Under the pieces are notes generated by a model. It was not told the origin of the DNA and searched no databases. It saw only the letters and a program-made list of their open reading frames with translations. This document shows positions 2,068 to 61,316 of a DNA stretch of 64,000 nt, one piece after another. Position numbers and translations under genes: made by a program. This DNA is from Pyrinomonadaceae bacterium (GTDB lineage: Bacteria; Acidobacteriota; Blastocatellia; Pyrinomonadales; Pyrinomonadaceae), in the NCBI GenBank assembly GCA_035296285.1, contig DATHBF010000449.1, positions 3,182 through 67,181 of the forward strand. Reading direction: 5' to 3'. Position 1 is the stretch's first letter, and each line of letters opens with the position of its first letter.

Positions 2068-3195
<1,128 letters not shown>

Positions 3196-4645: not shown

Positions 4646-4662
4646 CCCGCGGGGTCAACCCG

Positions 4663-5718
4663 TTAATGCGCGAGCGAAGCGTAGTCCGTGTAGCCGCGCT
4701 CGCCCGGCGTGTAGAAGGTCGCCTGGTCGGGCTCGTTCAGGGGGGCGCCGAGCCTGAACCTCTCGGGCAGGTCGGGGTTGGAGATGAACTTGGTGCCGTA
4801 CACGACCGCGTCGGCGAGCCCGCGCGCCAGCAACCCCTCGCCCGCCTCCTTCGACAGCCCCGCGCCCGCGAAGTAGACGCCCTCGTAGACGGGCCTGAGC
4901 CTCTCGTGCCACCCCTCGCCCGTGAAGTCGCCGACGTGGACGTAGGCCAAACCCCGCCCGTTCAACTTTTCGAGGACGTAACGGTAGAGCCCTTCGGCGT
5001 CCGTCTCCTCGATGTCGTTGAAGGGCATCCGCGGCGAGAACTTCACGCCGACTCGGGCCGCGCCTACGGCCTCCGTCATCGCCTCCAGCACTTCGAACAG
5101 GAACCTCGCGCGGTTCTCGATTGAGCCGCCGTACTCGTCCGCGCGCAGGTTCACGTTCGTCGAGAGGAACTGCTGGACGAGGTAGCCGCTCGCCGCGTGA
5201 AGCTCGACGCCGTCGAAGCCCGCCTCGACGGCGTTGGCGGCCGCCGCGGCGAAGTCTCGGACGGTCTGGCTTATCTCCTCGCGCGTCATCTCGCGCGGGG
5301 TCACGAACTCCTTCATCCCCTCGTCGGTGTAGTTCTGCCCCTTCGCGCGCACCGCGCTCGGCGCCACGGGCCGCGCGCCCTCGGGCAGGAAGTCGGGCAG
5401 CGCGATGCGCCCCGTGTGGAAGAGCTGCATGAAGACCTTCCCGCCGCGCGCGTGAACCGCCCCGGCGACGGGCCGCCAACTCTCCACCTGCTCGGGCGTG
5501 TAGACGCCCGGCGTGCGCACGTAGCCTCGCGCCATCGGCGAGACGTTGGTGGCCTCCGTGATGATGAGCCCCGCCGAGGCGCGCTGCCGGTAGTACTCGG
5601 CGACGAAGGCGGGCTGCACGCCGAGGTCGTCGGCGCGGCTGCGCGTCATGGGCGCCATCACGATGCGGTTGTCCAGTTCGATGTCCCCGACTCGGAGCGG
5701 GTCGAAAAGAGTTTTCAT
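4663..5718 (-). CDS. Old Yellow Enzyme family NADH:flavin oxidoreductase (alkene reductase)
   Basis: Reads MKTLFDPLRVGDIELDNRIVMAPMTRSRA...GLIITEAT...QLFHTGR, which are classical OYE motifs. GGAGGA lies upstream of the ATG. Confidence 0.85.
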   Translation of the reverse strand: MKTLFDPLRVGDIELDNRIVMAPMTRSRADDLGVQPAFVAEYYRQRASAGLIITEATNVSPMARGYVRTPGVYTPEQVESWRPVAGAVHARGGKVFMQLFHTGRIALPDFLPEGARPVAPSAVRAKGQNYTDEGMKEFVTPREMTREEISQTVRDFAAAAANAVEAGFDGVELHAASGYLVQQFLSTNVNLRADEYGGSIENRARFLFEVLEAMTEAVGAARVGVKFSPRMPFNDIEETDAEGLYRYVLEKLNGRGLAYVHVGDFTGEGWHERLRPVYEGVYFAGAGLSKEAGEGLLARGLADAVVYGTKFISNPDLPERFRLGAPLNEPDQATFYTPGERGYTDYASLAH

Positions 5719-39882: not shown

Positions 39883-40689
39883 ATGCTCCAACCCAAATCA
39901 TTCCTTTACGAAGTGAGCGGCGGCGTCGCGACCATCCGGCTGAACCGGCCGGAGCGCCTGAACGCGCTGACCTTCGAGGTCTACCGCGAGCTGACCGACG
40001 CCTTCGCCGCCTTGCAGACGGAGAAGGACGTGCGCGCCGTCGTCATCACGGGCGAGGGCCGCGCCTTCTGCTCGGGCGGCGACGTGCGCGACATCATCGG
40101 CCAGCTGCACGGGCGCGACATCGAGGGGCTGCTCGCCTTCACGCGCCTGACGTGCGAGCTGGTGCGCAACATCCGCCGCCTGCGCAAGCCCGTCGTCGCC
40201 AGCCTCAACGGCACGACGGCCGGCGCGGGCGCCTGCATCGCCCTCGCCTCCGATTTGAGAATCGCCAGCAACGACGCGCGCATCGCCTTCCTCTTCGTCA
40301 AGGTCGGGCTCTCCGGCGCCGACATGGGCGCCGCCCACCTGCTGCCGCGCCTCGTCGGGCTCTCGAAGGCGACCGAGCTGCTCTACACCGGCGACTTCAT
40401 CACGGCCGAGGAGGCGCACCGCGTCGGCCTCTACAACCGCGTCGTCGCGCCCGAGGACCTGGAGAAGGAGACGCGCTCTCTGGCCGAGCAATTGGCGGCC
40501 GGCCCCTCGTTCGCGCTCGGCGTGACGAAGGAGATGCTTGAGCGCGAGATGGACCTCTCGCTCGACGCCGCGCTCGAACTCGAAGCGCAGGCGCAAGCCT
40601 TCTGCATGCAGCACCCGGACTACCGCGAAGCCTACGAGGCGTTCATGGAGAAGCGCGCGCCGCGCTTCCGGCACGGAGGAGAAGTATGA
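39883..40689 (+). CDS. enoyl-CoA hydratase/isomerase family protein
   Basis: Contains VATIRLNRPERLNAL...GEGRAFCSGGDV...NGTTAGAGACIALASDLRIA. Confidence 0.85.
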   Translation: MLQPKSFLYEVSGGVATIRLNRPERLNALTFEVYRELTDAFAALQTEKDVRAVVITGEGRAFCSGGDVRDIIGQLHGRDIEGLLAFTRLTCELVRNIRRLRKPVVASLNGTTAGAGACIALASDLRIASNDARIAFLFVKVGLSGADMGAAHLLPRLVGLSKATELLYTGDFITAEEAHRVGLYNRVVAPEDLEKETRSLAEQLAAGPSFALGVTKEMLEREMDLSLDAALELEAQAQAFCMQHPDYREAYEAFMEKRAPRFRHGGEV

Positions 40690-41975
40690 GCCGTCTGACC
40701 CGCACGCTCGCCGCCCTGTCGCTCGCCGCCTGTCTCGCCGCCGCGGCCTCCGCGCAGACGCCCGCCGACGGGACGCTGCTCGAACAGAAGACCTTCGACG
40801 GCTGGGACTACAACGGGCTCGCGCCCTGGCAGCGGGCCGTCTACGGCCGCGAGACGTTCGACGCCCTGCGCAACTCGGCCGACGTGGAGCTGCTTAAGAT
40901 CAGGTACGCGAGCGGCGGCCTGAGCGTCGCCGGCTTCATCGCCAAGCCGAAGAAGACGGCGGGAAGGCTGCCCGTCATCATCTTCAACCGCGGCGGCTTA
41001 GACGAAGGCGTCATCGGGATGTCGAACTTCAACTACATCCACGAGATGTTCCGCTACGCCTCCGAGGGCTTCGTCGTCGTCGCCTCGCAGTACCGCGGCG
41101 TGGACGGCGCGGGCGGGCGCGACGAGGTGGGCGGCGCCGACCTCGCCGACGTTTTCAACATCATGAAGCTCGCCCGCTCGCTCGACTACGTTGACGCCGA
41201 CCGCCTCTTCATGTGGGGCTACTCGCGCGGCGGGCTGATGACGCTGCAAGCCCTCCGCGACGGCGCGAAGCCGCGCGCCGTCGTCCTCGTCGGCGCCCCG
41301 ACCGACTACGGCGCGCTGCTGCCCGGCTTCGAGAGCTTCTTCCGCGCGGCCTTCCCCGACTACGACCGCCGCAAGGAGGAGCACCTGCGCAACCGCACGC
41401 CCCTCAACTGGGTCGAGAAGATAGACGCGCCCGTGCTCATCCTCCACGGCGGCGACGACAACCTCACGCCCGTCCAGTCGCTCAACCTCGCGCGCCGGAT
41501 GGAAGAGTCGGGCAAGCTCTACGAGCTGGTCATCTATGCCGGCGACAACCACCCCGTCCTCTTCAACCGCGAGGACCGCCTGCGCCGCACCGTTGACTGG
41601 TTCAAGAACCCGCGCAAGATGTCTGCGGCCTCGGCCGTCCGCAAGACGGTCGAGACGCACGGCGTCGAGGCCGCGCTCAAACAGTACCGGGAGCTGCAAA
41701 GGACGCAGGCCGACCGCTACCAGTTCGGCGAGGCCGACCTCAACCGCTTCGGCTACTCGCTGCTCGGCGAGGGGCGCGTCAAGGAGGCCGTCGAAGTCTT
41801 CAAGCTCAACGCCGAGCTGTTCCCGCAGAGCTTCAACACCTACGACAGTCTCGCCGAGGCTTACGCCGCCGCGGGCGAGCGCGAGCTGGCGATGAAGAAC
41901 TACAGGAAGTCGCTTGAGCTGAATCCGCAGAACGCGAACGCCGCGGACAGGCTGAAGGAGTTGGAAAAGAAGTAG
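40686..41975 (+). CDS. secreted S9-type alpha/beta hydrolase (prolyl oligopeptidase/DPP-like) with C-terminal TPR
   Basis: Signal peptide MSRLTRTLAALSLAACLAAAASAQ. Nucleophile elbow MWGYSRGG. ...ILHGGDDNLTP contains the acid residue region. The C-terminus (NAELFPQSFNTYDSLAEAYAAAGERELAMKNYRKSLELNPQN) is TPR-like. Confidence 0.7.
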   Translation: MSRLTRTLAALSLAACLAAAASAQTPADGTLLEQKTFDGWDYNGLAPWQRAVYGRETFDALRNSADVELLKIRYASGGLSVAGFIAKPKKTAGRLPVIIFNRGGLDEGVIGMSNFNYIHEMFRYASEGFVVVASQYRGVDGAGGRDEVGGADLADVFNIMKLARSLDYVDADRLFMWGYSRGGLMTLQALRDGAKPRAVVLVGAPTDYGALLPGFESFFRAAFPDYDRRKEEHLRNRTPLNWVEKIDAPVLILHGGDDNLTPVQSLNLARRMEESGKLYELVIYAGDNHPVLFNREDRLRRTVDWFKNPRKMSAASAVRKTVETHGVEAALKQYRELQRTQADRYQFGEADLNRFGYSLLGEGRVKEAVEVFKLNAELFPQSFNTYDSLAEAYAAAGERELAMKNYRKSLELNPQNANAADRLKELEKK

Positions 41976-49681: not shown

Positions 49682-51229
49682 ATGTCCCACGTCGAATTTC
49701 CGGAACGATTCAACATGGCGGACTACTTCCTCTACCACAACGTGGAGGAGGGGCGCGAAGCCAAGGTCTGCCTCTACTACGAGGACGAGCGTTACACCTA
49801 CGGCGACGCCGTGCGTCTGTCGAACCGCGCCGGAGGCGCCCTGCGCGAGTCGGGCCTGAGAGTCGAAGACCGCGTGCTGTTGGTGCTGCCCGACTGCCCG
49901 GAGTTCGTCTGGACGTGGTTCGGCGCGGCGCGGGCTGGCGGCGTCATCACGATGGTCAACCCGCTGCTGCCGGCGGACGACTACCGCTACTACCTCGAAT
50001 ACACGCGCGCCCGCGTCGCCGTCGTCCACGAGTCGCTGCTTGAGAACTTCACGCGGGCGGCCGAAGGCGCGCGGCATCTACAGAGCGTGCTGGTCGTCGG
50101 CGGCGAGCGCGGCCCGTTCCATTCCTTCGCCGAAGTCTTGAACGCGCAAGCAGACGAGCTGACGCCCGCCGACACGCACCGCGACGACCCGGCCATCTGG
50201 CTCTTCACCTCCGGCTCGACCGGCCACCCGAAGGGCGCCGTCCACCTCCAGCACGACCTGCCCTTCAACACGGAGTGCTACGCCAAGCGCGTCCTCGGCG
50301 TGAACGAAAATGATTTGACCGTCTCCGTCCCCAAGCTCTTCTTCGGCTACGCGACGGGCACGAACCTGCTCTTCCCCTTCTCCGTCGGCGGCGCCACCGC
50401 GCTCTTCTCTGAGAGGTCAACGCCCGACAAACTCTTCGAGGTCATCGAACGCTACCGCCCCACCGTCCTCACCAGCGTGCCGACGATGATCGGCGCCATG
50501 CTCAACGCCGAGAACTCGGCCGCGCGCGACCTGTCCTCCCTGCGGATGTGTCTCTCGGCCGGCGAGGCGCTGCCCGTCGAGTTGTACCGCCGCTGGGTCG
50601 AGACCTTCGGCGTCGAGATTCTCGACGGCATCGGCTCGGCCGAGATGTTCCACATCTACATCACGAACCGGCCCGGCGACGTGAAGCCCGGCAGCCTCGG
50701 CCGCATCGTCGAGGGCTACGAGGCCGAGGTAGTTGACGCCGACGGCCGCGCGCTCCCCGCGGGCGAGATGGGCACGCTCCGCGTCAAGGGCGACTCGGCC
50801 GCGCTCTGCTACTGGCAGGCGCACGAGAAGTCGAAGCAGACGTTTGCCGGCGACTGGTGCACGACCGGCGACCAGTTCCACGTAGACGCCGACGGCTATT
50901 ACTGGTATCACGGCCGCACCGACGACATGCTCAAGGTCTCCGGCATCTACGTCGCGCCGGCCGAGATCGAGAACTGCCTGCTCCGCCACGAGGCGGTCGC
51001 CGAGGCCGCAATCGTCGGCCACGACGACGGCTCCGGCCTCGTCAAGCCCAAAGCCTTCCTCGTCCTCCGCGAAGGCCACGCCCCCGGCGAGGACCTCGCG
51101 CGCCAGATTCAGGACTTCGTCAAGTCGCGCCTCGCCCCCTACAAGTACCCGCGCCGGGTCGAGTTCGTCGCCTCGCTCCCGAAGAACGACCGCGGCAAGA
51201 TAGACCGGAAGGCGCTCAAGACGCGGTGA
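49682..51229 (+). CDS. benzoate-CoA ligase family enzyme (probable 2-aminobenzoate-CoA ligase)
   Basis: Contains FPERFNMADYFL...WLFTSGSTGHPKGAVHLQHDL...GEMGTLRVKGDS...GDQFHVDADGYYWYHGRTDDMLKVSG...PKNDRGKIDR. These are ANL motifs with a benzoate-CoA-ligase-type N-terminus. Confidence 0.8.
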   Translation: MSHVEFPERFNMADYFLYHNVEEGREAKVCLYYEDERYTYGDAVRLSNRAGGALRESGLRVEDRVLLVLPDCPEFVWTWFGAARAGGVITMVNPLLPADDYRYYLEYTRARVAVVHESLLENFTRAAEGARHLQSVLVVGGERGPFHSFAEVLNAQADELTPADTHRDDPAIWLFTSGSTGHPKGAVHLQHDLPFNTECYAKRVLGVNENDLTVSVPKLFFGYATGTNLLFPFSVGGATALFSERSTPDKLFEVIERYRPTVLTSVPTMIGAMLNAENSAARDLSSLRMCLSAGEALPVELYRRWVETFGVEILDGIGSAEMFHIYITNRPGDVKPGSLGRIVEGYEAEVVDADGRALPAGEMGTLRVKGDSAALCYWQAHEKSKQTFAGDWCTTGDQFHVDADGYYWYHGRTDDMLKVSGIYVAPAEIENCLLRHEAVAEAAIVGHDDGSGLVKPKAFLVLREGHAPGEDLARQIQDFVKSRLAPYKYPRRVEFVASLPKNDRGKIDRKALKTR

Positions 51230-51306
51230 GCGCCGGGCGGGCGCCGCGGCGGCGCCCGCCCGGCGCAGACCTCATCTTTTCCCGGGCCTCAGACCCCGGA
51301 CACCGA

Positions 51307-53523
51307 ATGGCAAACGAACCGAGGACCCTCGACGATGGTCGCTACCTGATCAAGCGGCTGCTGGGCCGCGGCGGGGCGGGGCGCGTCTACCTCGCGGAAG
51401 ACACGCAGGGGGAGCCGGGCCGCGAGACGTGCGCCATCAAGGAACTGGACCCGCGCTCGCAAGACCCCGAAGAGCGGCAGCAGGTCCGCGAGCTCTTCGC
51501 GGACGAGGAGAACTACCTCAGCGAGTTGGGCGGCTACAACGGCCAGATACCGATGCTGTACCGTTGCTTCACGGCGCCGGGCGCCGACGGCGGTGAGCGG
51601 CGCTACATCGCGCAGGAGTACATCGAGGGCTCGTCGCTGAGCGACGAGCTGAGAGACGGCGTGCTCGACGAGACTGAGGTCAAGCGGCTCCTCGTCCAGC
51701 TCCTGCCCGTGCTCGCTCACATCCACGCGAAGAGTTATATCCACCGAGACATAACCCCCTCGAACATCATCCTGCGCCGCGGCAGCCGCCTGCCCGTGCT
51801 CATAGACTTCGGCACGGCCAAAGAGATGGAGACGACCGTCGTCGCCACAGGCAAGCGTGATGACGCCTACACGCGCGTCGTCGGCAAGAAGGGTTACTGG
51901 GCGCCCGAACAAGAACGGGGAAGGCCCGTCTACGGCAGCGACCTCTACAGCCTCGGCGTGACGGCCATCCAACTGCTGACGGGCGTCGGGCCGTTGGAGC
52001 TGGCGCGCGAGTCACTGACCGAACGGGGCGACCCGCTGTCCGAACGGCTGCGCTGGCGCGAGCAACACGCCCCACACGTCTCGCCCGAATTCGCTGCGGT
52101 CCTCGACCGCGCGGTCGCGCCCGACGTTAAGGACCGTTACGATGGCGACGCGCGCCAGATGCTCGTGGCCGTCGAGGAGCTGGGGGTCACCGACGATGAG
52201 TTGCTGCGCCAGCGGCTCGGCGACGCGTGGGAAGCGATCTCGGCGCGCGAGCCGCGCCTCCCATCCGGCTTCAAGCAGTGCAACGGCAGCACGCTCCACC
52301 TCGGCGGGGCGCCGGACCCGGCGGCCCTCGGCAAAGTGTTAGACGTGGTCTTTAAGCGGCGCACCGGGGCCTTCGCGGTACTGCGCGAGCCGCGCCCGAT
52401 TAACTGCGGCTACTACGTCAGCAGAGAGGATGAATACTGCCCGCAATGCGGGGCCTACAACGCCCTCCGGCTCGGCGACCGCCAGTCCCACCTGCTGCAA
52501 CACGCGCCGGAGGTGTACATACAGCGGTGGCACCACAAGACTTACTCCGAGATGATAAGGTTACGCGAGATACCTGACGTTGATAACATCGTCGGGAGAG
52601 TGTCCAACTGGCTAGGCGCTGAAGACCTCCTGGACTGGTTCGGGCGGGGCGCCGCCTTCATTCTGACGGCGGGCGCCGCCCTCGGGGGGCTGGTCCTCGG
52701 GCTGCTCGTGAGCCTACGCCTCTTCGAGACCACCCTTACTATCACGGCCTTCACCCTCGGCGCGGCTGTTACCGGGGCGCTCACCGGATTCTTTTTGTGT
52801 GAGCTGATTAACGAGCAGCAGAACACCGAGCAGCACCGCCGGAAGGCCGCGGAGATACAGCGTTGGCTGCACGCGTTGAAAAAGCAGAGGACGGAGCTGT
52901 CCGACAGCCTGCGCGAGAAGACGGAGGCGCGCCGGGCCGAAGGGGCGTGCCTCGACAGCGTGGACGGTCAGCTCAAGGTCGAGTTGGAGAGCATCGCGCG
53001 GCAGGGGGAGCGCATCCGCGAGCGACTCAACTCGGCGCGCAGGGCAGCGCCCGAGGTCGTCGCGGAGAGCGAGAAGCGTCGGGAGGAGGAGGGGCTGCGG
53101 CGCGCACTCCAGCGCAGCGTCGAGCGGCAGCGCAAATACGAGGTCAAGGTTGCCGAGATTGACCTGCTCCGGCGCCACAACGAGTTACAGGCATTCCGCT
53201 GGAGCAAGGGCATCACCCACGAGAATGGCGCGGCCATCGAGGCGGAGTTGGAGGCGCTGACCGCGCGGCTCGACGGCATCTACGGCGAGCTGCGTCTGAC
53301 GGACGCGCTCGAATCCGAGGCCGGCAAGCTGTGGCTCGCGCGCATCCTGCACGCGCGCAAGGTACTGCTCAAAGCGCGCGGGCAACTCTTCCGTCACATG
53401 AACCGGCTGGCCGTGAACGAGACGGCCGCCGCGCCCGCCGAAATGCTGCGCAACCTCAACCTGCTGAATGCCTACCTCTGCTTCGACGACTTCCTCGGCG
53501 AGTACCGCGCGCTCAAGTCCTGA
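51307..53523 (+). CDS. Ser/Thr protein kinase with zinc-ribbon-like segment, two predicted TM helices and a long C-terminal coiled coil
   Basis: Hanks kinase motifs: GRGGAGRVYLA, AIKEL, HRDITPSNIIL, DFGTAK, GYWAPEQ. The segment CGYYVSREDEYCPQCGAYN follows. A hydrophobic stretch is AAFILTAGAALGGLVLGLLVSLRLFETTLTITAFTLGAAVTGALTGFFLCELI. About 230 aa of charged heptad-like sequence follows. The ATG is at 51307 inside the track ORF 50857-53523. Confidence 0.8.
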   Translation: MANEPRTLDDGRYLIKRLLGRGGAGRVYLAEDTQGEPGRETCAIKELDPRSQDPEERQQVRELFADEENYLSELGGYNGQIPMLYRCFTAPGADGGERRYIAQEYIEGSSLSDELRDGVLDETEVKRLLVQLLPVLAHIHAKSYIHRDITPSNIILRRGSRLPVLIDFGTAKEMETTVVATGKRDDAYTRVVGKKGYWAPEQERGRPVYGSDLYSLGVTAIQLLTGVGPLELARESLTERGDPLSERLRWREQHAPHVSPEFAAVLDRAVAPDVKDRYDGDARQMLVAVEELGVTDDELLRQRLGDAWEAISAREPRLPSGFKQCNGSTLHLGGAPDPAALGKVLDVVFKRRTGAFAVLREPRPINCGYYVSREDEYCPQCGAYNALRLGDRQSHLLQHAPEVYIQRWHHKTYSEMIRLREIPDVDNIVGRVSNWLGAEDLLDWFGRGAAFILTAGAALGGLVLGLLVSLRLFETTLTITAFTLGAAVTGALTGFFLCELINEQQNTEQHRRKAAEIQRWLHALKKQRTELSDSLREKTEARRAEGACLDSVDGQLKVELESIARQGERIRERLNSARRAAPEVVAESEKRREEEGLRRALQRSVERQRKYEVKVAEIDLLRRHNELQAFRWSKGITHENGAAIEAELEALTARLDGIYGELRLTDALESEAGKLWLARILHARKVLLKARGQLFRHMNRLAVNETAAAPAEMLRNLNLLNAYLCFDDFLGEYRALKS

Positions 53524-54037: not shown

Positions 54038-54323
54038 GCGCGTATACTTTCCGTTCCCGGACCGCAGTCACACAGGCGGGGACGTTTCCGCGACGGAGCC
54101 ACCTGAATCATCTCGCAGACTTTTCCGTCCAAAGTTAATTGCACTCTTCCGGTCCTGAAGTCAGGGCCGACCTCGACGCGGTAAGAATGCCGCGGCGAGG
54201 CACGACGACATCCGGCCCGCCGACAATGGCGAGGGCCGGAACGACTCACGGGTCGAGGCTTCCTTTTCACTGGGGCTAGCTCTCTTGCCCCCCAACCACA
54301 GCACAGTGAAACAAGGAGAACGA

Positions 54324-55694
54324 ATGAAGAAGTTTTTCGCATGTCTCGCGGTCGTCATGGCCGCGCTCATCGCCGCCGTCACCACCAACGTCGGCGCCCA
54401 GCAAACCTGTACGACCGAGGTCGTCACCGAGAGCGACATCGCCAGGCAGGCCGAGGGCACAGCCCCGACGAAGGATTGGGTGCTTTACACGCGCCCGGCG
54501 ACCCCCGGCGTCGGCACTTTCGTGACCGGCCCCGGCACGCCCCCCGCCGGCGACGGGAGCCTTAAGTTCGACACCGTCGGCGCCAGCGACAAGGTGTTCA
54601 TCTTCAACTTCGAGCACGAGGGCGTGCCGCTCAACAGCATTAACAAGCTGTCGTACTCCACGTACCGCTACCCGGCCAGCACCTCGGGCGACGCCCGGCA
54701 GGCGACGATCCCGGCGATAAACATCGTCATAGACTTCAACGGCCCGAACGTCGCCGGGGGCTTCAGCACGCTGGTCTTCGAGCCCATCTACAACCTCAAC
54801 CAGCAGTCGGTCGTCGAAGGTCAGTGGCAGTTGTGGGACGCCATCAACAGCGGCAACGCCATCTGGTGGTCCACGCGGGCCCTTAACAATCAATGCGCCG
54901 GGGCCACAGTCAACTGCTGGAAGACGTGGGACTACATCATCCAGAACAACCCGCAGGCCGTCATCTACCTGCCGGGCCAGAACGACCCCACGCGCGGCGG
55001 CATCGGCCTCAATCAGGGCGGCGGCAACGCCGGCCTCTTCGCCTCCGTTGACGCGTTCACCCTCGGTTACGGGAACTTCTGCGTGAAGTATGATTTCGAG
55101 CCTGACGCCGACAACGACGGCGCGGGCGACGGCGAGGACTGCGACGACAACGACAATACGGTCTACCCCGGCGCCCCCGAACTCTGCGACGGCAAGGACA
55201 ACGACTGCGACGGGGACGTTGACGAGGGCGCGACGACCACCTTCTACGCCGACCTCGACAACGACGGTTACGGCAACTCGGCGCAGAGCGTCCAGGCGTG
55301 CAGCGCGCCCCAGGGCTACGTCACCACCGGCGGCGACTGCAACGACAACAACCCGGCCGTCAACCCCGGCGCGGCCGAGGCGTGCAACGGCACGGACGAT
55401 AACTGCAACGGTTCAACCGACGAAGGCTTCCTCAACACCGACGGCGACGGCATGGCCAACTGCGTTGACCCGGACGACGACGGCGACGGCTTCGACGACG
55501 TGGCCGACAACTGCCCGCTCGTCGCCAACGACCAGTCGGACTTTGACGGCAACGGCATCGGCGACGCCTGCGAGACCGACTCGCCCGTCAGCCCGACCAA
55601 TAAGGACCAGTGCAAGAACAACGGCTGGACGATGTGGACGCCGAGATTCAAGAACCAGGGCGACTGCATCCAGTACGTCAACACACGGAAATAG
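54324..55694 (+). CDS. secreted protein with C-terminal MopE-like putative metal-binding repeats and thrombospondin-type-3-like Asp-rich repeats
   Basis: Signal peptide MKKFFACLAVVMAALIAAVTTNVGAQ. Repeats DCDDNDNTVYPGAPELCDGKDNDCDGDVDEG and GGDCNDNNPAVNPGAAEACNGTDDNCNGSTDEG. Also DTDGDGMANCVDPDDDGDGFDDVADNCPLVANDQSDFDGNGIGDACE. Confidence 0.6.
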   Translation: MKKFFACLAVVMAALIAAVTTNVGAQQTCTTEVVTESDIARQAEGTAPTKDWVLYTRPATPGVGTFVTGPGTPPAGDGSLKFDTVGASDKVFIFNFEHEGVPLNSINKLSYSTYRYPASTSGDARQATIPAINIVIDFNGPNVAGGFSTLVFEPIYNLNQQSVVEGQWQLWDAINSGNAIWWSTRALNNQCAGATVNCWKTWDYIIQNNPQAVIYLPGQNDPTRGGIGLNQGGGNAGLFASVDAFTLGYGNFCVKYDFEPDADNDGAGDGEDCDDNDNTVYPGAPELCDGKDNDCDGDVDEGATTTFYADLDNDGYGNSAQSVQACSAPQGYVTTGGDCNDNNPAVNPGAAEACNGTDDNCNGSTDEGFLNTDGDGMANCVDPDDDGDGFDDVADNCPLVANDQSDFDGNGIGDACETDSPVSPTNKDQCKNNGWTMWTPRFKNQGDCIQYVNTRK

Positions 55695-55728
55695 TGGGCG
55701 CGGCCGGCGCTTCGGCCGCGTGCGCAAA

Positions 55729-55771
55729 AATGAGAGGGCCGGGATGTCGTGTCCCGGCCCTCTCATTTTAT
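55729..55771 (+). terminator. rho-independent terminator
   Basis: ATGAGAGGGCCGGGA-tgtcgtg-TCCCGGCCCTCTCAT, a 15-bp perfect stem followed by TTTTA. Confidence 0.75.
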
Positions 55772-55795
55772 GAACGACTGAGCGGTGTGGGCGTT

Positions 55796-55824
55796 TTTAC
55801 ATCGCGGAAGGGGTGGCATATAAT
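55796..55824 (+). promoter_or_regulatory. candidate sigma70-type promoter
   Basis: TTTACA-17 nt-TATAAT, about 90 nt upstream of the GTG start at 55915. Confidence 0.5.
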
Positions 55825-55914
55825 CATCCGCGCTCTCCGGGCCCGCTCCCTTTTAACCTTCCACTAGAAAGTTAAGAAAAGGCCCCGCGGAGACTCGCAG
55901 GAGGTTCTTCGGCC

Positions 55915-57087
55915 GTGTCCCAACGAAAATTCATCGCGCTCGCCCTGGCACTCGTCGTGTCCCTCGGGCTGTCTTCCCCGACGCTCGCGCTCGTCGCCGA
56001 CGCCGTCGCCACGCCGACGCCCTCGACCGACGCGCCGCCCGCCGACGCCGAAGAGGCTCCCGCCGAAGCCCCCGCCCCGAACGGCGACGCGGCCCCCGCC
56101 CCCGGGCAGCCGCAGAAGCGCAAAGGCAACGCCTTCGCGCGCGCCCTCTCTGCCCCCTTCCGCGCCCTCGCCCGTCTGTTCGGCGGCGGCAAGAAGAACG
56201 ACGCCGCGAAGAAGCGCGGGCAGCCCGCCCCGCCCTCGAAAACCGAGACGGCCGCCGCCGTCAAGCCCAAGCCGGCCGAGCCCGCTGCCGCGGCTCAGGA
56301 GCCGGCCGCCGCCGCGGCCCCGCCGCTCCAGTCTGTTCTGAAGGACGCGCCCGCCGTGCGCGCCGCCGAAGGACCGCGCGTCGTCCGCCCGGCCGAAGCC
56401 GGCGCGGCGCGTCCGAACACGGGGATGTGGATTCCCGTCATCGAAGGCATCCCGAAAGACCCGCTCTCGCAGGGGCGCGCGCTGCTCGAACACGGCTACG
56501 TCCAGGAGTCCATCTCGGAGCTTTCAATCGCCGCCACGCAGGTCGGGCCCGGGCTGGTCGAAGCCAACAACCTGCTCGGCATCGCCTACGACCGCATGGG
56601 CTGGCACAGGCAGGCCATAGAGGCTTACCAGCGCGCCCTCACCTTCGCGCCCAAAGACCCCTACGTCCTCGCCAACCTCGGCTTCTCACTCCACCTCGCC
56701 GACGACCACCAGAACGCCCTCAAGCGCCTCAAACAAGCCTCGAAGCTGGCCCCCGGCACCCCCGTCATCTACAACAACCTCGGTATCGTCCTCGCGCGCC
56801 TGCGCAAGTACGAAGAGGCGTACAAGCACTTCGCCATCGCCTCGAACGAGTACGACGCGCACCTAAAGCTCGCCGGCATACTCGAAGACCAGCGCCGCGA
56901 CGCCGAGGCCGTCAAGCACTACGAGGCCGCGCTCAACATGCAGCCCGGCGCCAGCGCCGTCCTCGAACGCCTCGTCGCCCTCTACGACCGCACGGGCCAG
57001 CGCGACAAGGCCGACACGGCCCGCCGCGCCCTCGGCCGGCCAAAGAACCCGCAGCGGACGACCATTGGCGGCGGTGGCGGCGACTAA
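55915..57087 (+). CDS. secreted/anchored Pro-Ala-rich protein with C-terminal TPR domain
   Basis: Has an N-terminal hydrophobic segment and a low-complexity A/P/E region. TPR repeats follow (NLLGIAYDRMGWHRQAIEAYQRALTFAPKDPYVLANLG...). Confidence 0.7.
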   Translation: MSQRKFIALALALVVSLGLSSPTLALVADAVATPTPSTDAPPADAEEAPAEAPAPNGDAAPAPGQPQKRKGNAFARALSAPFRALARLFGGGKKNDAAKKRGQPAPPSKTETAAAVKPKPAEPAAAAQEPAAAAAPPLQSVLKDAPAVRAAEGPRVVRPAEAGAARPNTGMWIPVIEGIPKDPLSQGRALLEHGYVQESISELSIAATQVGPGLVEANNLLGIAYDRMGWHRQAIEAYQRALTFAPKDPYVLANLGFSLHLADDHQNALKRLKQASKLAPGTPVIYNNLGIVLARLRKYEEAYKHFAIASNEYDAHLKLAGILEDQRRDAEAVKHYEAALNMQPGASAVLERLVALYDRTGQRDKADTARRALGRPKNPQRTTIGGGGGD

Positions 57088-57470
57088 AGCATAAAAAGAA
57101 CCGAGGGGGCCGGGATTTAACTCCCGACCCCCTCGGCGACGAGGCCGCCGCCCGCCCACCCGCGTGCGGCGACCCCGCGGCACAGCCCGCGCCCTTCCGG
57201 GGCGGACGTGCCTACCGAGGGACGATGCGCGTGCCCATAAGCGCACTCATCCCATGATTCGGCAGGAAGGGACAGGCCCGGGTGCCGGAGCAGACTCCGA
57301 CCTGCCCTTGCTAAAAGGCAAACTCCTTAAAGGGACTGTTCGCGAATAAGGGGTGACGTGATCCGTGAGGATTACGTCATCTGTAGCGGGGTGGCGCTGG
57401 CGTAACTGGCTTAAAGCGAGAAACTATTTACACCCGCCAAGCTCATCAGTCAACGGTTTTTTCGCCCTCT

Positions 57471-57485
57471 TGCAAGACTCTTGCA
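57471..57485. promoter_or_regulatory. 15-bp perfect palindrome TGCAAGA-C-TCTTGCA (copy 1)
   Basis: Read directly from the sequence. It shares 18 of 19 nt (TGCAAGA[C/G]TCTTGCATC) with copy 2 at 57966-57980. It lies about 140 nt 3' of the small peptide gene. Confidence 0.6.
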
Positions 57486-57626
57486 TCTCCCGGCGCAAGC
57501 GACCCACAGGGCAAGAAATTTTTCCTGGCCCGTACCAGATATTTTGCTATCATGCACGGGCACACCACGCCTGTGCCGCCGCGAGCCTCACGGCAGCGTA
57601 CACCTTGCCGCGACTCGCCGACGTTC

Positions 57627-57887
57627 CTAGAACAGCCCCAGCAAGCTTTGCATCAAATTAAACGTGACCTCTAACCCGTCAATCGAGGTTTGTGAGGACG
57701 TGCCAGTCACACCAGTCTGCATTTCACCTGGAGCGCCGTTCTGGATATCACCGTCGCCGGTGACGCCGTTCTGTATTACTCCTTGAGTCGCGCTCGTCGT
57801 TCCTGTGACCCCGTTTTGCATTAGTCCGGCGTAGGCAGAGCAGGACAGAGTCAGAATCAACATCGCGGTGCTAATAGCTTTGCGCAT
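57627..57887 (-). CDS. small secreted repeat peptide (86 aa), hypothetical
   Basis: Signal peptide MRKAISTAMLILTLSCSAYA. The mature part has four degenerate repeats (LMQNGVTGTTSATQG / VIQNGVTGDGD / IQNGAPGE / MQTGVTGTSSQTS) and a hydrophobic tail FNLMQSLLGLF. GAGAGGA lies upstream of the ATG. The gene sits in a low-GC island. Confidence 0.6.
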   Translation of the reverse strand: MRKAISTAMLILTLSCSAYAGLMQNGVTGTTSATQGVIQNGVTGDGDIQNGAPGEMQTGVTGTSSQTSIDGLEVTFNLMQSLLGLF

Positions 57888-57955
57888 TTTCTTTTCCTCT
57901 CATTTTGGATGGGTTAGTAGCCATGCTCGCCGCATCTCGTTGAACTGCGGTGACT

Positions 57956-57984
57956 TTGATACTGATGCAAGAGTCTTGCATCAA
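57956..57984 (-). promoter_or_regulatory. candidate sigma70-type promoter for the small peptide gene, with palindrome copy 2 in its spacer
   Basis: The minus strand reads TTGATG-17 nt-TATCAA. The 17-nt spacer contains TGCAAGACTCTTGCA. The predicted 5' UTR is about 60 nt. Confidence 0.4.
57966..57980. promoter_or_regulatory. 15-bp perfect palindrome TGCAAGA-G-TCTTGCA (copy 2)
   Basis: Ends 3 nt before the ATG (57984) of the TPR-HTH-REC regulator. It lies inside the spacer of the candidate promoter for the divergent peptide gene. Confidence 0.6.
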
Positions 57985-59891
57985 TGAAGAAAGGCAACCC
58001 TCACATGAATTTGGTCAGCGACAAGTTGAGATTATTAGAAACCCCTAACCTTACAACTGACGAGCGCACCTTGCTTCGCTGCCAAGTCGCCGCGGACTTA
58101 ATTTACGCGGGGCAGTATGAGGCAGCAAAGGACGCTTTAGGGGACCTGTGGCATGAAATCGGCAACCGCCCTGACCTCAAAGGGCGGTCAATTCTTACCA
58201 CCGCTGAGATTCTGTTGCAATGTGGAGTGTTAAGTGGCTGGCTCGGTAGCGTCCGCAATATCTCTCAGGCTCAAGAACAAGCGAAGAACCTACTCTCAGA
58301 AGCACTCCGACTCTTCGAGGCTCAAGGCTGTCGGTCTAAAGTCTCAGAAGTTCAGTATGAACTCGGCATATGTTACTGGCGTGTTGGTGCCTATGATGAA
58401 GCGCGCATCATTTTACGTGAGGCTCTCCAAGAACTTGGGGAGAACAATATCGAACTTGAAGCAAAAATCTTAATTCGACGAACACTTGTCGAGATTAGCA
58501 CCAACAGAGATCACGAGGCGTGGGAAATTCTCGAAGAGGCCAAATCTTCCTTTGAAACTTGCAGTGATGCGGTTAAGGGAAGGTGGCACGGGCAAAAAGG
58601 TCTAGTCCTATTCAAACTAGCAACTATAGAAAATAGGGCTGATTACTTCGACAGAGCCATCATTGAATATACGGCGGCTATTTACCATTATGAGCGGGCG
58701 AAGCATGAGAGGTACTGCGGCAATAATTTAAACAACTTAGCCTTCCTCCTGTACAAATTAAACCGTTTTAAGGAAGCGCATGAGAATTTAGACCGGGCTT
58801 ATAAGATTTTTGCGAGGCTGAAAGACCCCGGCAATGTGGCGCAGGTGAATGAGACGCGGGCGCGGGCGTTGGTGGCGGAGGGGAGGTTTGAGGAGGCTGC
58901 GCGGGTGGTTGAGCGCGTCGTGAGGGTTTTGGAGCAGGGCGGGGAGAACGGGTTGCTGGCGGACGCTTTGGCGGTGCAGGGGGTGGCGCTGGCGAGGTTG
59001 GGGCAGCAGGAAGGTTCGATGCGGGCGCTGCGGCGGGCGGTGAGCGTGGCGACGGATTCGGGCGCGCACTCGAACGCGGGGCAGGCGGCGCTGACTTTGA
59101 TTGAGGAGCATGCGGAGAGGATGGCGGACGCGGAATTGTATTCCGTCTACCGCAGGGCCGACCGCATGTTGAAGGAGACGCAGGACGCGGAGGACGTGGC
59201 GCGGTTGAGGGCGTGCGCGCGGGTCGTCGTGCGGCGGATGCGTGGGGCGAAGTTGAGTGACGAGGATTTCAGCCTGCCGCGCGTGGTCAGAGAGTACGAG
59301 GCGCGCTTTATCGAGCAGGCGCTGGACCTCGAAGAGGGGAGCGTGACGCGGGCGGCGAAGCGGCTCGGCGTCAAGCACCAGACGCTCGCGCACCTGCTTG
59401 AGACGCGCCACCGGCACCTGTTGCAGAAGAGGCGCCCGGCCGTCAGCCGCCGCCGGAGCATCATCACGGGGCCTCGCGTCATCACCCCTTACAAGAATGT
59501 GAAGGTCGCGCGGCCCGTCTCGATCCTGCTGGTCGAAGACAACGAGATGGTGGCGGAGCCGGTCAGGGACTGCCTTGAGTACGAGGGCTGGCGCGTCGAG
59601 ACGTGCGCCGATGGCGGCGAGGCGCTGCGGCTCATCGAGGGGCCGGAGCACTTCGATTTGCTGCTGCTCGACAACGAGCTGCCGGGGGTGACCGGCCTGG
59701 AACTGATACGCCGCGCGCGCTCACTCGCGCACCGGAGGCGGACGCCTATCGCCATGTTCTCGGGCTGCGACGTGGCCGTCGAGGCGCGCAGCGCCGGCGC
59801 CGACGCCTTCCTCAGAAAGCCGGACGACATGCCCGTGCTCGTCAACGTCATCGGCGGCCTCCTCGCCGAAGAGGCCGCGGACGAGGATTAA
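57984..59891 (+). CDS. cytoplasmic regulator: about 430-aa TPR-like helical-repeat domain + Fis-type HTH + C-terminal receiver (REC) domain
   Basis: The N-terminal helical repeats have TPR-like spacing (YELGICYWRVGAYDEARIILREAL, NNLAFLLYKLNRFKEAHENLDRAYKIF, ...). HTH_8-like segment FIEQALDLEEGSVTRAAKRLGVKHQTLAHLL. REC segment VSILLVEDNEMVAEPVRDCLEYEGWRVETCADGGEALRLI...DLLLLDNELPGVTGLELIR. No signal peptide or TM helix. Confidence 0.75.
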   Translation: MKKGNPHMNLVSDKLRLLETPNLTTDERTLLRCQVAADLIYAGQYEAAKDALGDLWHEIGNRPDLKGRSILTTAEILLQCGVLSGWLGSVRNISQAQEQAKNLLSEALRLFEAQGCRSKVSEVQYELGICYWRVGAYDEARIILREALQELGENNIELEAKILIRRTLVEISTNRDHEAWEILEEAKSSFETCSDAVKGRWHGQKGLVLFKLATIENRADYFDRAIIEYTAAIYHYERAKHERYCGNNLNNLAFLLYKLNRFKEAHENLDRAYKIFARLKDPGNVAQVNETRARALVAEGRFEEAARVVERVVRVLEQGGENGLLADALAVQGVALARLGQQEGSMRALRRAVSVATDSGAHSNAGQAALTLIEEHAERMADAELYSVYRRADRMLKETQDAEDVARLRACARVVVRRMRGAKLSDEDFSLPRVVREYEARFIEQALDLEEGSVTRAAKRLGVKHQTLAHLLETRHRHLLQKRRPAVSRRRSIITGPRVITPYKNVKVARPVSILLVEDNEMVAEPVRDCLEYEGWRVETCADGGEALRLIEGPEHFDLLLLDNELPGVTGLELIRRARSLAHRRRTPIAMFSGCDVAVEARSAGADAFLRKPDDMPVLVNVIGGLLAEEAADED

Positions 59892-59903
59892 TCAGACGAA
59901 AAT

Positions 59904-61316
59904 TCAGGGCCGGCGCGTCAGGTTGTAGTCGCGCAGGCGGCGGTAGAGCGTGGAGGGCGAGATGCCGAGGATTTCGGCGGTCCGGCCGCGGTGCCAGCCG
60001 GTCTGTTCGAGGGCGGCGAGAATCTGCTGGCGCTCCATCTCGCGCAAGGGCGGTGGCACTCCCTGCGGCTGGCCGGCGGGCTGGCCCGCGGGAGTGACGG
60101 CCGCGGGCGCGGCGGCGAAGGGGCGGAAGGAGGATGAAGGGGACGCTATTTCGGGCGGCAGCTCGGCCGTCGTGATGCGCGAGTCGTTGGCGAGGAGGAC
60201 GGCGCGCTCAAGGGTGTTCCGGAGCTGGCGGACGTTGCCGGGCCAGTGGTAAGTCTTGAGGGCTTCGAGGGCTTCGGGCGTCAGTTCGGGCGGGTTGGTG
60301 CCGCCGAGCTGCTTGAGCAGGTGTTGCGCCAGGGGCTCGATGTCTTCGGTGCGCTCGCGCAGGGCGGGCAGCGAAATCTGGAAGCCGTTGACGCGGTAGA
60401 GCAGGTCGGAGCGGAAGCGGCCGTCGCCGACGACCTCGTTGATGTCGCGGTTCGTGGCGGCGACGATCCTGACGTTGACCTGCACCTTCCTGACCGCGCC
60501 CACCCTGTAGAACGAGTTAGTCTCAATCGCCCGCAAGAGCTTCGACTGCAAAGGCGGCGGGAGCTCCGTCACCTCGTCCAGAAAGATCGTCCCGTTGTCG
60601 GCCAACTCCCAGAGGCCGAGCTTGCGCCCCTTCGCGCCGGAGAAGGCGCCGGCCTCGTAGCCGAACAATTCCGACTCAAGTAAAGTTTCCTGGATGGCCG
60701 CGCAGTTGAGGTCGATGAAGGAGCCGCCCGCCCGCAAAGACATGCGGTGGATGGCGTGCGCGATGAGTTCCTTGCCCGTGCCAGACTCGCCCGTGATGAG
60801 CACCGAGGCGTCCGAGGGCGCGACCCGCTCCACCAGCCGCAGCACTTCCCGCATCGAGTCCGAGACGTAGACGATCTCGGGCGCGGCCGTCTGCCGCTCG
60901 ACGAGCGTGCGCAGGCGCGCGTTGTCAACCCTCAGGCGGCGCTTCTCGGCGGCCTGCTTGACGAGCGCGTCCAGCTCGGCGATGCGGTAGGGCTTCGAGA
61001 GGTAGTCGTAGGCGCCGAGCTTCATCGCCTCGATGGCCGACTCGACGGTGGCGTGGCCCGTGAGCATGATGACTTCGGGCGGGTTCGGGCGCTGGTGGAC
61101 GCGGCGCAAAAGCTCCATGCCGTCGAGGCGGGGCATGCTGATGTCCGTGAGCAGCACGTCCACGTTGCTCTCTTCGAGGAGCTTTAAAGCCTCCTCGCCG
61201 TCGGGCGCGACCTTCACGTCGTGGCCCATGCGCTGCAACTCCTTCTGGAGCACGAGACGCAGGTTCGCCTCGTCTTCGGCGACGAGGATTCTGGCGGGCT
61301 GTGTGTTCTGGCTCAA
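59904..61316 (-). CDS. sigma54-dependent response regulator (NtrC family: REC + AAA+ + Fis HTH)
   Basis: REC segment RILVAEDEANLRLVL...DVLLTDISMPRLDG. AAA+ segments VLITGESGTGKELIA and GAFSGA (GAFTGA-like). Also ...RFRSDLLYRVN. The C-terminal segment RTAEILGISPSTLYRRL is the HTH. Confidence 0.9.
   Translation of the reverse strand: MSQNTQPARILVAEDEANLRLVLQKELQRMGHDVKVAPDGEEALKLLEESNVDVLLTDISMPRLDGMELLRRVHQRPNPPEVIMLTGHATVESAIEAMKLGAYDYLSKPYRIAELDALVKQAAEKRRLRVDNARLRTLVERQTAAPEIVYVSDSMREVLRLVERVAPSDASVLITGESGTGKELIAHAIHRMSLRAGGSFIDLNCAAIQETLLESELFGYEAGAFSGAKGRKLGLWELADNGTIFLDEVTELPPPLQSKLLRAIETNSFYRVGAVRKVQVNVRIVAATNRDINEVVGDGRFRSDLLYRVNGFQISLPALRERTEDIEPLAQHLLKQLGGTNPPELTPEALEALKTYHWPGNVRQLRNTLERAVLLANDSRITTAELPPEIASPSSSFRPFAAAPAAVTPAGQPAGQPQGVPPPLREMERQQILAALEQTGWHRGRTAEILGISPSTLYRRLRDYNLTRRP

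Follow-up and report, generated by a model that had tools for sequence, protein, structure and literature searches.

What does a small secreted repeat peptide do when its gene lies back to back with that of a cytoplasmic tetratricopeptide repeat (TPR) regulator in a member of the Acidobacteriota? The question is raised by a 64,000-nucleotide stretch of contig DATHBF010000449.1 from a Pyrinomonadaceae bacterium (hereafter the window, whose own coordinates we use), in which an open reading frame (ORF) of 86 amino acids (aa) on the minus strand (57627–57887) is divergent from a regulator gene on the plus strand (58005–59891), with 117 bp between them. A preliminary description of this DNA likened the two genes to quorum-sensing pairs of the RRNPP type, in which an exported propeptide is read by the TPR receptor encoded beside it. 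Judging from residue-level covariation across homologous pairs, it is very probable that the TPR domain directly and specifically recognizes the motif of the adjacent peptide. With somewhat less confidence, we also consider it likely that the two genes form a complete signaling cassette, in which a secreted propeptide is paired with a cognate cytoplasmic receptor and transcription factor, RRNPP-like in its logic and independently built.

A secreted propeptide accompanies the regulator across its family

The 86-aa product has the architecture that was first read from it: a signal peptide with n-, h- and c-regions, four copies of a G-x-[MI]-Q-[NT]-G motif (LMQNG, VIQNG, DIQNG and EMQTG), and a hydrophobic tail. 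The signal peptide, MRKAISTAMLILTLSCSAYA (57828–57887, minus strand), is of the Sec/signal peptidase I type, with predicted cleavage between AYA and G. The first motif copy, G21-L-M-Q-N-G26 (57810–57827, minus strand), would therefore lie at the predicted mature N-terminus and is the proposed core of the cognate ligand; we denote its variable positions x1 = L, x2 = M, x3 = Q, x4 = N and x5 = G. Three further copies occupy 57711–57782 (G-VIQNG at 57765–57782, G-DIQNG at 57735–57752 and G-EMQTG at 57711–57728, all on the minus strand), and the amphipathic, hydrophobic C-terminal tail, EVTFNLMQSLLGLF-COOH (57630–57671, minus strand), is the most conserved part of the peptide family. The small protein has no match in Pfam, NCBIfam or Rfam; it has 23 database homologues, and its gene is under purifying selection, with a ratio of nonsynonymous to synonymous divergence (dN/dS) of ~0.17 in comparison with a syntenic locus, L001.

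Members of the peptide family range from 32 to 92 aa (median 76) and share a layout in which a signal peptide running to A-x-A is followed by G-x1-[M/I]-x3-[N/T]-x5, a Pro/Thr-rich linker and a strongly conserved amphipathic tail, ..LT[QE]xxLxLLxxLxSL[LF]-COOH, which closes with F or L in 110 of 135 peptides. By a heuristic test on the sequence for tripartite structure and A-x-A, the signal peptide is canonical in all 133 parsed members (K or R within the first eight residues, a hydrophobic core, and small residues at −3/−1), with A at −1 in 131 of them, and in all 133 the motif begins 1–3 residues past the predicted signal peptidase site. A lipoprotein reading of an LSC/LAC motif was rejected; only 62 of the 133 signal peptides contain the Cys, but every one has A-x-A and then G. 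Homologues carry one to five copies of the motif. A single precursor often repeats the same version of it, and paralogues have different ones (DMQND three times, EIPNG twice, WIQNG together with WIQNE). In one subfamily the tandem units are perfect repeats of 8 residues, in which one fixed position is basic.

The presence of an adjacent small secreted ORF beside homologous regulators had been set beforehand as one of two tests of the proposed pairing, the other being similarity of the N-terminal domain to peptide-binding TPR receptors; neither refuted it. Such an ORF is found at 140 of the 141 loci that have upstream sequence: a peptide profile search recovered a divergent homologue beside 77 of 78 loci from GTDB, and one is present beside all 63 metagenome loci, two of these having been found by eye after automatic pairing missed them. 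The sole exception, L022 (DASQMB010000046, regulator at 3007–4857), has a very GC-rich upstream region with no signal-peptide ORF, and its regulator may be an orphan receptor. The spacing between the two genes is 101–134 bp in 77 GTDB loci, mostly 117–122 bp, and mostly 113–122 bp when GTDB and metagenome sets are taken together. The regulator has more than 120 full-length relatives at 55–100% identity, all from Pyrinomonadaceae, Blastocatellia or Acidobacteriota metagenome-assembled genomes; the wider family numbers 510 loci in the species representatives of GTDB and 499 or more in JGI metagenomes, and forms 425 clusters at 50% identity (E ≤ 1e-30).

Several of these cassettes can coexist. 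The genome SMAG_U6492 has cassettes with four different motifs (DMPNG, VIPNG, IMPNG and WMPNG), and contig JAFAVK010000024 carries three (L033, L072 and L074) within 32 kb. Cassettes are also clustered at L005, L041, L069 and L070, and at some loci two regulators or a second peptide gene lie within a few kilobases. A tblastn search of the sensor against PLSDB plasmids and INPHARED phages gave no match, and there is thus no sign of carriage by known mobile elements.

A small repeat-containing precursor with a conserved C-terminal region, present as several diverged paralogues per genome, could also be the precursor of a ribosomally synthesized and post-translationally modified peptide (RiPP) or a bacteriocin, with the regulator controlling production or immunity. 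We give this reading very little credence: ~140 cassettes share no conserved neighbor that encodes a modification enzyme, a dedicated transporter or an immunity function, the export signal is a Sec signal peptide and not the leader of a dedicated exporter, and no known precursor family appeared in the domain and RNA family searches. When ORFs of at least 100 aa were clustered across 80 loci and a protease, an ABC importer or a modification enzyme was sought, no other neighboring gene was conserved; apparent clusters proved to be overlapping spurious ORFs in high-GC DNA or local synteny of close genomes.

The peptide motif covaries with the groove of the adjacent receptor

We first sought covariation in 76 GTDB pairs, comparing the first motif after the signal peptide with every column of the regulator, and then compiled final tables from 130 non-redundant pairs, given here as counts of both true/peptide only/receptor only/neither. 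Residues are numbered in a 628-aa form of the regulator (add 7 for positions in the 635-aa ORF). The covariation concentrates on a few positions: x1 with residues 203 and 247, x2 with 277 and 240, x3 with 165, x4 with 196 and 241, and x5 with 122. An acidic x1 against R/K203 gives 62/1/0/67, that is, residue 203 is basic in 62 of 63 acidic pairs and in none of the 67 non-acidic ones. For x3 = Q against S/C165 the table is 40/0/13/77, for x2 = M against N/S/D277 it is 78/2/5/45, and for x4 = N against G196 it is 87/0/9/34. Position x1 shows the fullest set of correspondences with residue 203, where D/E is accompanied by R/K (62/63), I/V/L by L/M/F (25/30), W by I/A/V (13/14), Y/H by D/E (10/12) and N by Q (7/7). 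Residue 247 distinguishes the two acids, with M beside x1 = D (21/27) and F beside x1 = E (34/36). At x3, Q goes with S/C165 (40/40), P with W165 (39/44) and G also with W165 (15/18); x2 = M goes with N/S/D277 (78/80), and x4 = N with both G196 and N241 (87/87). The chemistry of these pairings is plausible, with acids matched to bases, aliphatic residues to aliphatic ones, Q to S, and P or G to W.

The pair in the window combines LMQNG with F203, F247, N277, N240, S165, G196, N241 and I122. Together with the covariation tables, the helix boundaries of the predicted structure define a putative ligand-reading stripe of I122, S165, W194, G196, Q197, F203, K204, N240, N241, F247 and N277 (58368–58835, plus strand). 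The code residues all fall on alternate helices of the model (110–126, 149–165, 188–209, 235–251 and 275–291), and it is the A helices of a TPR fold that line its concave groove. The first motif copy also follows the x1 rule more often, in 69 of 78 peptides versus 55 of 105 extra copies.

Rules learned on the GTDB loci were then applied to an out-of-sample set of 60 non-duplicate metagenome loci. Of the 33 loci sharing 54% or more identity with the query, 32 obeyed the x1 rule and 30 the x3 rule, and the acid/base table was 30/0/0/30 across all 60 loci, down to 42% identity. The rule linking x3 to residue 165 (Q with S/C, otherwise W) fails in the most distant subfamilies (42–52% identity), in which other residue pairs are found, and is therefore subfamily-specific.

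Could this pattern be an artefact of shared ancestry and physical linkage, as might the mosaic block described below? The genes are only 117 bp apart, the edges of the block lie at conserved motifs where recombination resolves easily, and peptide distances fit the N-terminal block of the regulator weakly better than its C-terminal block (Spearman 0.47 vs 0.42), a mirror-tree comparison that is not discriminating. However, on parsimony trees built from the N-terminal block with the code residues removed, each code character needs 12–27 changes; the acidic-x1 and basic-203 characters each need at least 26, and yet they agree at 129 of 130 tips. Moreover, x1 and x3 are 6 nt apart and inseparable by recombination, yet each pairs with its own receptor residue (203 and 165, respectively) independently of the other, and all combinations occur, a pattern that neither linkage nor shared ancestry can produce. 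Normalized mutual information with the receptor is also higher for x1–x4 (0.66–0.78) than for control positions in the signal peptide and tail (0.3–0.62), the tail itself showing no strong covariation (at most 0.50), and the pairings make physico-chemical sense. We therefore consider an artefact most improbable, and direct recognition of the motif by the TPR domain very probable.

The regulator is a TPR superhelix joined to a Fis-type helix-turn-helix

The regulator was first listed as a 635-aa ORF (57984–59891, plus strand), which exists as described but probably overstates the protein. Its true start is probably M8 at 58005, giving 628 aa: the ribosome binding site and its context (AGAAAGG ... 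CCTCAC-ATG) are conserved in 77 homologous loci, and both the family profile, by its register, and the 628-aa public annotation point to the same codon. The predicted domain order, with helical repeats of TPR type at the N-terminus, then a Fis-type helix-turn-helix (HTH) and a C-terminal receiver (REC), was borne out by Pfam and by AlphaFold2. Pfam matches above the cut-offs are TPR_12 (58 bits) and TPR_2 (42 bits) over residues 87–361, HTH_8 at residues 435–468 (26.9 bits against a cut-off of 22) and Response_reg at residues 514–622 (65.7 bits). An AlphaFold2 model of residues 1–492, made with 79 homologues (mean predicted local distance difference test, pLDDT, 89.5; predicted template modeling score, pTM, 0.80), shows a continuous superhelix of ~20 helices (residues 3–412) followed by a four-helix HTH (424–475), and in a model of the whole protein (pLDDT 84.9) a disordered linker leads to a receiver with the canonical (beta-alpha)5 fold. 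We accordingly delimit a TPR sensor domain at residues 1–412 (58005–59240), the Fis-type HTH unit at residues 424–475 (59274–59429) and the receiver at 59523–59849, all on the plus strand.

The phospho-acceptor set of the receiver is intact (E511, D512, D556 at 59670–59672, S586 and K605), and these residues and P606 are invariant across 29 homologues. The receiver thus has the acidic pocket, Asp, Ser/Thr and Lys of two-component receivers, in an atypical C-terminal position. The preliminary description treated this domain as part of the module, a view that did not survive comparison, because the receiver is missing from ~57 of 77 related loci; about three quarters of them encode a short TPR-HTH_8 form of 493 aa (491–496 aa), which makes the receiver an accessory add-on in this subfamily.

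Does the sensor resemble known peptide receptors? Foldseek against the PDB gave its best E-values (7e-9 to 3e-6) to LGN/Pins (7e-9), APPBP2 and Tom70/71. Rap proteins were also matched, at E-values of ~5e-6 to 2e-5 (RapF 4i9c, RapJ 4gyo and phi3T Rap 8rst), with template modeling (TM) scores of 0.57–0.70, the match to phi3T Rap reaching 0.70 with a root-mean-square deviation (rmsd) of 5.7 Å. MalT and SARP were not among the top 50 matches. When PDB sequences were searched with a profile of the regulator, the only matches were to REC domains and designed consensus TPRs, which is uninformative about the sensor. The similarity to peptide-binding TPR receptors proposed earlier thus holds at the level of a fold class that includes Rap, and does not extend to anything specific to RRNPP.

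The specificity half of the locus is a hypervariable allelic cassette

Synteny between the window and contig DASZEK010000011 (L001) extends over 7.3 kb, with 90–97% DNA identity except in the segment 57600–58800, where it is only 55–79%. Adding the contigs of L081 and L082 gives four alleles, and all six pairwise comparisons show the same contrast, with 51–87% identity inside ~57650–58850 and 91–100% outside. On the basis of four-allele identity, synonymous divergence (dS) and GC content at third codon positions (GC3), we define a hypervariable cassette at ~57640–58840 that comprises the peptide gene minus its tail, the control region and regulator codons 1–278. Its left edge is the conserved tail of the peptide, and its right edge is an invariant AQVNETRAR motif at codons 279–287 (58839–58865). 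All code residues (122–277) fall inside it, and the codes of the four alleles differ: LMQNG with F/S in the window, DMPNG with R/W in L001, EIPNG with R/W in L081 and EMQTG with R/S in L082, at residues 203 and 165.

Relative to L001, dS is 1.0 in the peptide gene and 1.95 in regulator codons 1–265, against 0.22 in the rest of the gene and 0.16–0.19 in flanking genes, while dN/dS inside the cassette is ~0.1. High dS confined to the block together with low dN/dS points to alleles that are old and have evolved separately, and not to a burst of positive selection. The composition differs in parallel: GC3 is 0.42–0.68 in the cassette part of the regulator versus 0.86–0.96 in the rest of the gene and ~0.90 in neighboring genes. 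The low GC3 of the peptide gene and codons 1–280 recurs in many high-GC loci (for example L007, L012, L014, L015, L018, L045 and L046), and in L014 it is 0.57–0.64 in the specificity region versus 0.95 in the rest of the same gene. One possibility is that a specificity region of low GC3 escapes homologous recombination and GC-biased gene conversion.

A shared control region carries a candidate operator

The divergent control region (57888–58004) is 117 bp long, a length that is near-constant in alignments over 77 loci, and it contains two inverted repeats. The first is GC-rich, TCGCCGCA...TGCGGTGA (57927–57953), with the family consensus GCCGCCG-N~14-CGGCGGC; RNAalifold on 64 loci places nine pairs in it, with compensatory changes in all nine. 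The second is a palindrome, GATGCAAGAGTCTTGCATC (57964–57982), centered 32 nt before the ATG of the regulator and found at the same position in related loci, which we propose as the operator of the HTH_8 domain. Another copy, TTGCAAGACTCTTGCAT (57470–57486), lies 3′ of the peptide gene, 495 bp from the first, and the two copies flank that gene. They are the only two in the 64-kb window, where 0.03 would be expected by chance. A second copy of a locus's own palindrome was seen only in the window, L001 and L002, and two-sided operators are thus clade-specific and not a feature of the family.

The arms of the palindrome differ between paralogues and roughly track the type of HTH recognition helix: ..KRQ.. 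occurs with ATGAC[C/A], ..KHQS.. with ATGCAAG, and ..[S/G]HQ..[I/V]N with TTGCC. This correlation between half-site and recognition helix is not clean and is best called suggestive. We infer from these sequence features that the cassette is autoregulated.

Divergent regulator–target pairs are common, and a conserved palindrome in a shared promoter also fits a relationship in which the peptide is simply a secreted or surface product, the target of the neighboring regulator and not its ligand, with the TPR domain sensing something else; the conserved amphipathic tail might then serve a function in the envelope. This relationship cannot explain a five-position, chemically complementary covariation that was validated out of sample and involves at least 26 independent switches, nor can it explain why a hypervariable block is shared by the peptide gene and the N-terminal TPR half only. 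We consider it quite unlikely.

The sensor is joined to different output modules

Homologues of the sensor (~410 aa) are also fused to an AAA+ module (Sigma54_activat) and HTH_8 in proteins of ~760 aa (P0158, P0177 and P0184). P0154 is grouped with these as a sigma-54 AAA+ fusion with HTH_8. These relatives explain the otherwise odd Fis-type HTH and point to an origin from enhancer-binding proteins. P0159 is intermediate, retaining the AAA lid only, with HTH_8; this fits the suggestion from domain content that the short HTH-only form is an enhancer-binding protein minus its ATPase. Is the peptide gene present here too? P0177, the sole sigma-54-activator-type homologue checked, is accompanied by a divergent gene whose 71-aa product carries a signal peptide and a hydrophobic tail. 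Among other fusions (P0150, P0163 and P0174) the sensor is joined to a TIR domain, a GNAT acetyltransferase or a 1549-aa histidine kinase with REC. The TIR-fused P0163 (locus L165) has no recognizable peptide gene in the 450 nt available upstream. The TIR fusion in L165 adjoins a phage-type integrase.

A proposed mechanism for the cassette

We propose that the 86-aa precursor would be exported by Sec and cut after AYA, leaving G-L-M-Q-N-G at the new N-terminus, as the family-conserved canonical signal peptide suggests. Further proteolysis would free short peptides bearing G-x1-[M/I]-x3-[N/T]-x5, with one primary N-terminal copy and up to four extras, and these peptides would re-enter the cytoplasm through a putative importer. 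In the best-supported step, to which the residue-level covariation speaks, the peptide would bind the concave groove formed by the A helices of TPR repeats 3–7, where x1 would be read by residues 203/247, x2 by 277/240, x3 by 165, x4 by 196/241 in the conserved KGRWHGQ helix, and x5 by 122. The ligand would then alter the Fis-type HTH, which may bind the palindrome ATGCAAGAGTCTTGCAT in the shared promoter region and its second copy in an autoregulatory loop; the conserved position of the palindrome, the co-variation of half-site and recognition helix, and the presence of only two copies in 64 kb suggest this step. In the long form only, phosphorylation of D556 in the appended receiver may serve as a second input. 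Specificity would be set by the peptide motif and receptor codons 1–278, which appear to be exchanged and maintained jointly, both as alleles ('pherotypes') and as several orthogonal paralogous cassettes per genome.

Must the peptide leave the cell at all? In the main rival explanation, the ligand is the precursor before export, or a fragment of it in the cytoplasm, and the TPR domain acts as a secretion-feedback or chaperone-like sensor, by analogy with the class II TPR chaperones of type III secretion that double as co-activators. Covariation reports recognition and not place, and binding of an unexported precursor would give the same pattern. Neither an importer nor a processing protease is linked to the cassette among the ORFs clustered at 80 loci, and the Acidobacteriota are diderm, so a true intercellular signal must cross the outer membrane twice. 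However, the motif lies 1–3 residues past the cleavage site in 133 of 133 peptides, which is sensible only if the cleaved N-terminus matters; its copies are multiplied within precursors in the manner of secreted pheromone propeptides; and orthogonal paralogues and deep allelic classes are expected of social discrimination, not of general monitoring of the Sec pathway. We judge intracellular recognition to be unlikely, though a good deal less so than the other alternatives. Given the conserved Sec signal, the motif at the predicted mature N-terminus and the multiplied copies, export, processing, re-import and binding are the most economical account.

Further points weigh against the signaling cassette as proposed. 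The similarity of the modeled TPR fold is generic, with LGN outscoring Rap by E-value, and searches of Pfam, NCBIfam and PDB profiles gave no RRNPP-specific sequence family match. The operator is assigned by correlation alone; a sigma-70 promoter scan of the control region was negative, and the only terminator-like site, at 57100–57137, is outside the module. The edges of the hypervariable block are also the two most conserved stretches, and could reflect where recombination resolves rather than selection. Finally, the proposed mechanism assigns no role to the strongly conserved C-terminal tail of the peptide. The chain as a whole is likely and no firmer than that, because the host is diderm and the compartment, importer and processing are predictions.

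TPR-receptor peptide signaling has been framed as a hallmark of Gram-positive Bacillota and mobile elements (PMC10075063, PMC9765709, PMC12998947), and no account of such systems in Acidobacteria or any other diderm phylum turned up in full-text literature searches. Taking the observations jointly, we lean, if only slightly, towards a broader reading in which the peptide-pheromone quorum-sensing cassettes of soil Acidobacteriota (Pyrinomonadaceae/Blastocatellia) make up a large family that evolved independently and would be the first with cytoplasmic receptors in a diderm phylum. This family would have a five-residue code, several orthogonal channels per genome, pherotype-like alleles and a modular sensor whose outputs are an HTH alone, an HTH with REC, or a sigma-54 AAA+ module with HTH; TIR, GNAT and histidine kinase fusions may exist as well. 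If this is correct, the same logic has been invented convergently in an abundant, poorly cultured soil phylum, and the cassettes would offer the first concrete handle on cell–cell communication and kin discrimination in Acidobacteriota, an unusually explicit ligand–receptor specificity code, and natural orthogonal peptide–sensor pairs for synthetic biology. RRNPP-style detection pipelines limited to Firmicutes miss whole families.

Surroundings of the cassette

As the preliminary description reported, 57250–58850 is low in GC; the content drops there from ~0.68 to 0.44–0.55. The composition of this 'low-GC island' is real, but its status as an acquired island is not upheld, part of it being the hypervariable specificity cassette. 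It consists of two distinct parts, a non-coding segment 3′ of the peptide gene (57250–57626) and the cassette (~57640–58840). The non-coding segment (GC ~0.54), which holds the second palindrome, is kept between alleles, with 93–100% identity to L081 and 82–93% to L001, and has a fold z-score of −1.97. That it is a decayed copy of the cassette was considered and rejected: it has no protein-level similarity to the regulator or peptide and shares only the 17-nt palindrome with the control region. It could be a 3′ untranslated region, a small RNA or a distal operator region. An Rfam scan of 55500–60500 at E ≤ 1 gave chance-level matches only.

Pfam confirms the three downstream neighbors named at the outset, namely a REC-GAF-PAS-HisKA-HATPase kinase (with a weak GAF match), an NtrC-type sigma-54 activator and a GGDEF protein. 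On the other side, between the module and an upstream TPR gene that ends at 57087, a 16-bp GC-rich stem at 57100–57137, with a run of T (minus strand) and a run of A (plus side), looks by sequence like a bidirectional terminator. The upstream gene (55915–57087), which is syntenic in L001 and L002, encodes a 390-aa protein with an N-terminal signal-like segment, an Ala/Pro-rich low-complexity region (GC 0.74–0.77) and C-terminal TPRs. Beyond it, 54285–55694 encodes a protein of 469 aa that is secreted and rich in D-x-D-x-D-G calcium-binding-like repeats; it also has two putative metal (copper)-binding motifs of the MopE type and matches thrombospondin type 3 repeats weakly. An 888-aa Ser/Thr protein kinase ORF (50857–53523; Pkinase domain at residues 165–429) overlaps the 3′ end of an AMP-binding enzyme gene (49682–51229), and translation probably begins at a later codon. 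At 40686–41975, ~16 kb from the cassette, is a gene of the prolyl-oligopeptidase family (Peptidase_S9); the propeptide linkers are Pro-rich, and there is no evidence of linkage.

Comparison with known systems

How does this cassette compare with established systems? The closest in logic are the RRNPP(A) systems of Bacillota and of their phages and plasmids (Rap-Phr, NprR-NprX, PlcR-PapR, PrgX, Rgg-SHP, ComR-ComS and AimR-AimP). Like these, it is a self-contained two-gene unit in which a Sec-exported propeptide is encoded beside a cytoplasmic TPR receptor, and no dedicated exporter, importer or protease is encoded alongside. A short linear motif would be read in the TPR groove, and its five-residue core is the size of a Phr pentapeptide; the RRNPP expectation that the mature peptide lies in the groove of its cognate TPR receptor is matched by the covariation of x1–x5 with A-helix residues, insofar as sequence can speak to it. 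Some precursors are multi-copy, and there are many paralogous cassettes per genome; multi-copy pheromone propeptides are documented for RRNPPA systems (PMC11343458; PMC9765709). The signature used by RRNPP_detector (Bernard et al.) comprises a propeptide of 10–100 aa, a Sec signal, a receptor of 250–500 aa, TPRs and gene adjacency (PMC10075063). Four of these five features are present outright (propeptide size, Sec signal, TPRs and adjacency), and the 628-aa window protein exceeds the receptor length because of its appended REC domain, whereas the short-form paralogues (491–496 aa) fall within it.

The differences are equally clear. The system in the window comes from a diderm lineage of Acidobacteriota (Pyrinomonadaceae/Blastocatellia). 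RRNPP(A) receptors have an N-terminal XRE-type HTH or three-helix bundle, whereas this regulator has a Fis-type HTH_8 C-terminal to its TPRs, an extra C-terminal REC that brings it to 628 aa, and relatives with a sigma-54 AAA+ module. The ligand motif of RRNPP(A) peptides is typically C-terminal; here it is at the N-terminus of the predicted mature peptide. With no match to an RRNPP, Rgg or Rap family either, homology to the RRNPP lineage is not seen. What stands of the earlier proposal is the logic of an adjacent exported propeptide and TPR-HTH receptor, and what falls is membership, as HTH type, domain order and sequence family all differ; the cassette is an RRNPP analogue, not a member.

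Hypervariability of a signal gene and of the ligand-sensing part of its receptor is the hallmark of pherotype loci such as Bacillus comQXPA, Staphylococcus agrBDCA and Streptococcus comCD. The cassette shows hypervariability confined to the signal gene and the sensing part of the receptor, and in its sequence pattern the locus resembles these systems: as in them, a block of atypical, lower GC is embedded in conserved, near-identical flanks, with deep allele classes at one chromosomal locus. comQXPA, agr and comCD use membrane histidine kinases as receptors, and dedicated enzymes modify the peptide signals of two of these systems; here, in contrast, a TPR transcription factor in the cytoplasm serves as receptor, and the cassette has no modifying enzyme.

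The remaining resemblances are to parts of the regulator. NtrC-type enhancer-binding proteins share the Fis-type HTH_8 output, and homologues of the TPR sensor are fused to sigma-54 AAA+ modules. However, the window protein has no Sigma54_activat match in Pfam and carries its REC at the C-terminus rather than the N-terminus; since it has no AAA+ domain, it cannot be a sigma-54 activator. MalT and SARP-AfsR (STAND) regulators also join TPR repeats to a DNA-binding domain, and weak matches were obtained to TPR_MalT (31.5 bits, cut-off 45) and AfsR (43 bits, cut-off 1430), but no NB-ARC/STAND NTPase domain was found in the window protein by Pfam and its HTH type differs. In LGN/Pins, APPBP2 and Tom70/71, too, a long superhelix of TPRs holds an extended peptide or a C-terminal tail in its concave groove; at 12–17% identity, rmsd values of 10–20 Å and with unrelated biology, the likeness is one of fold class only.

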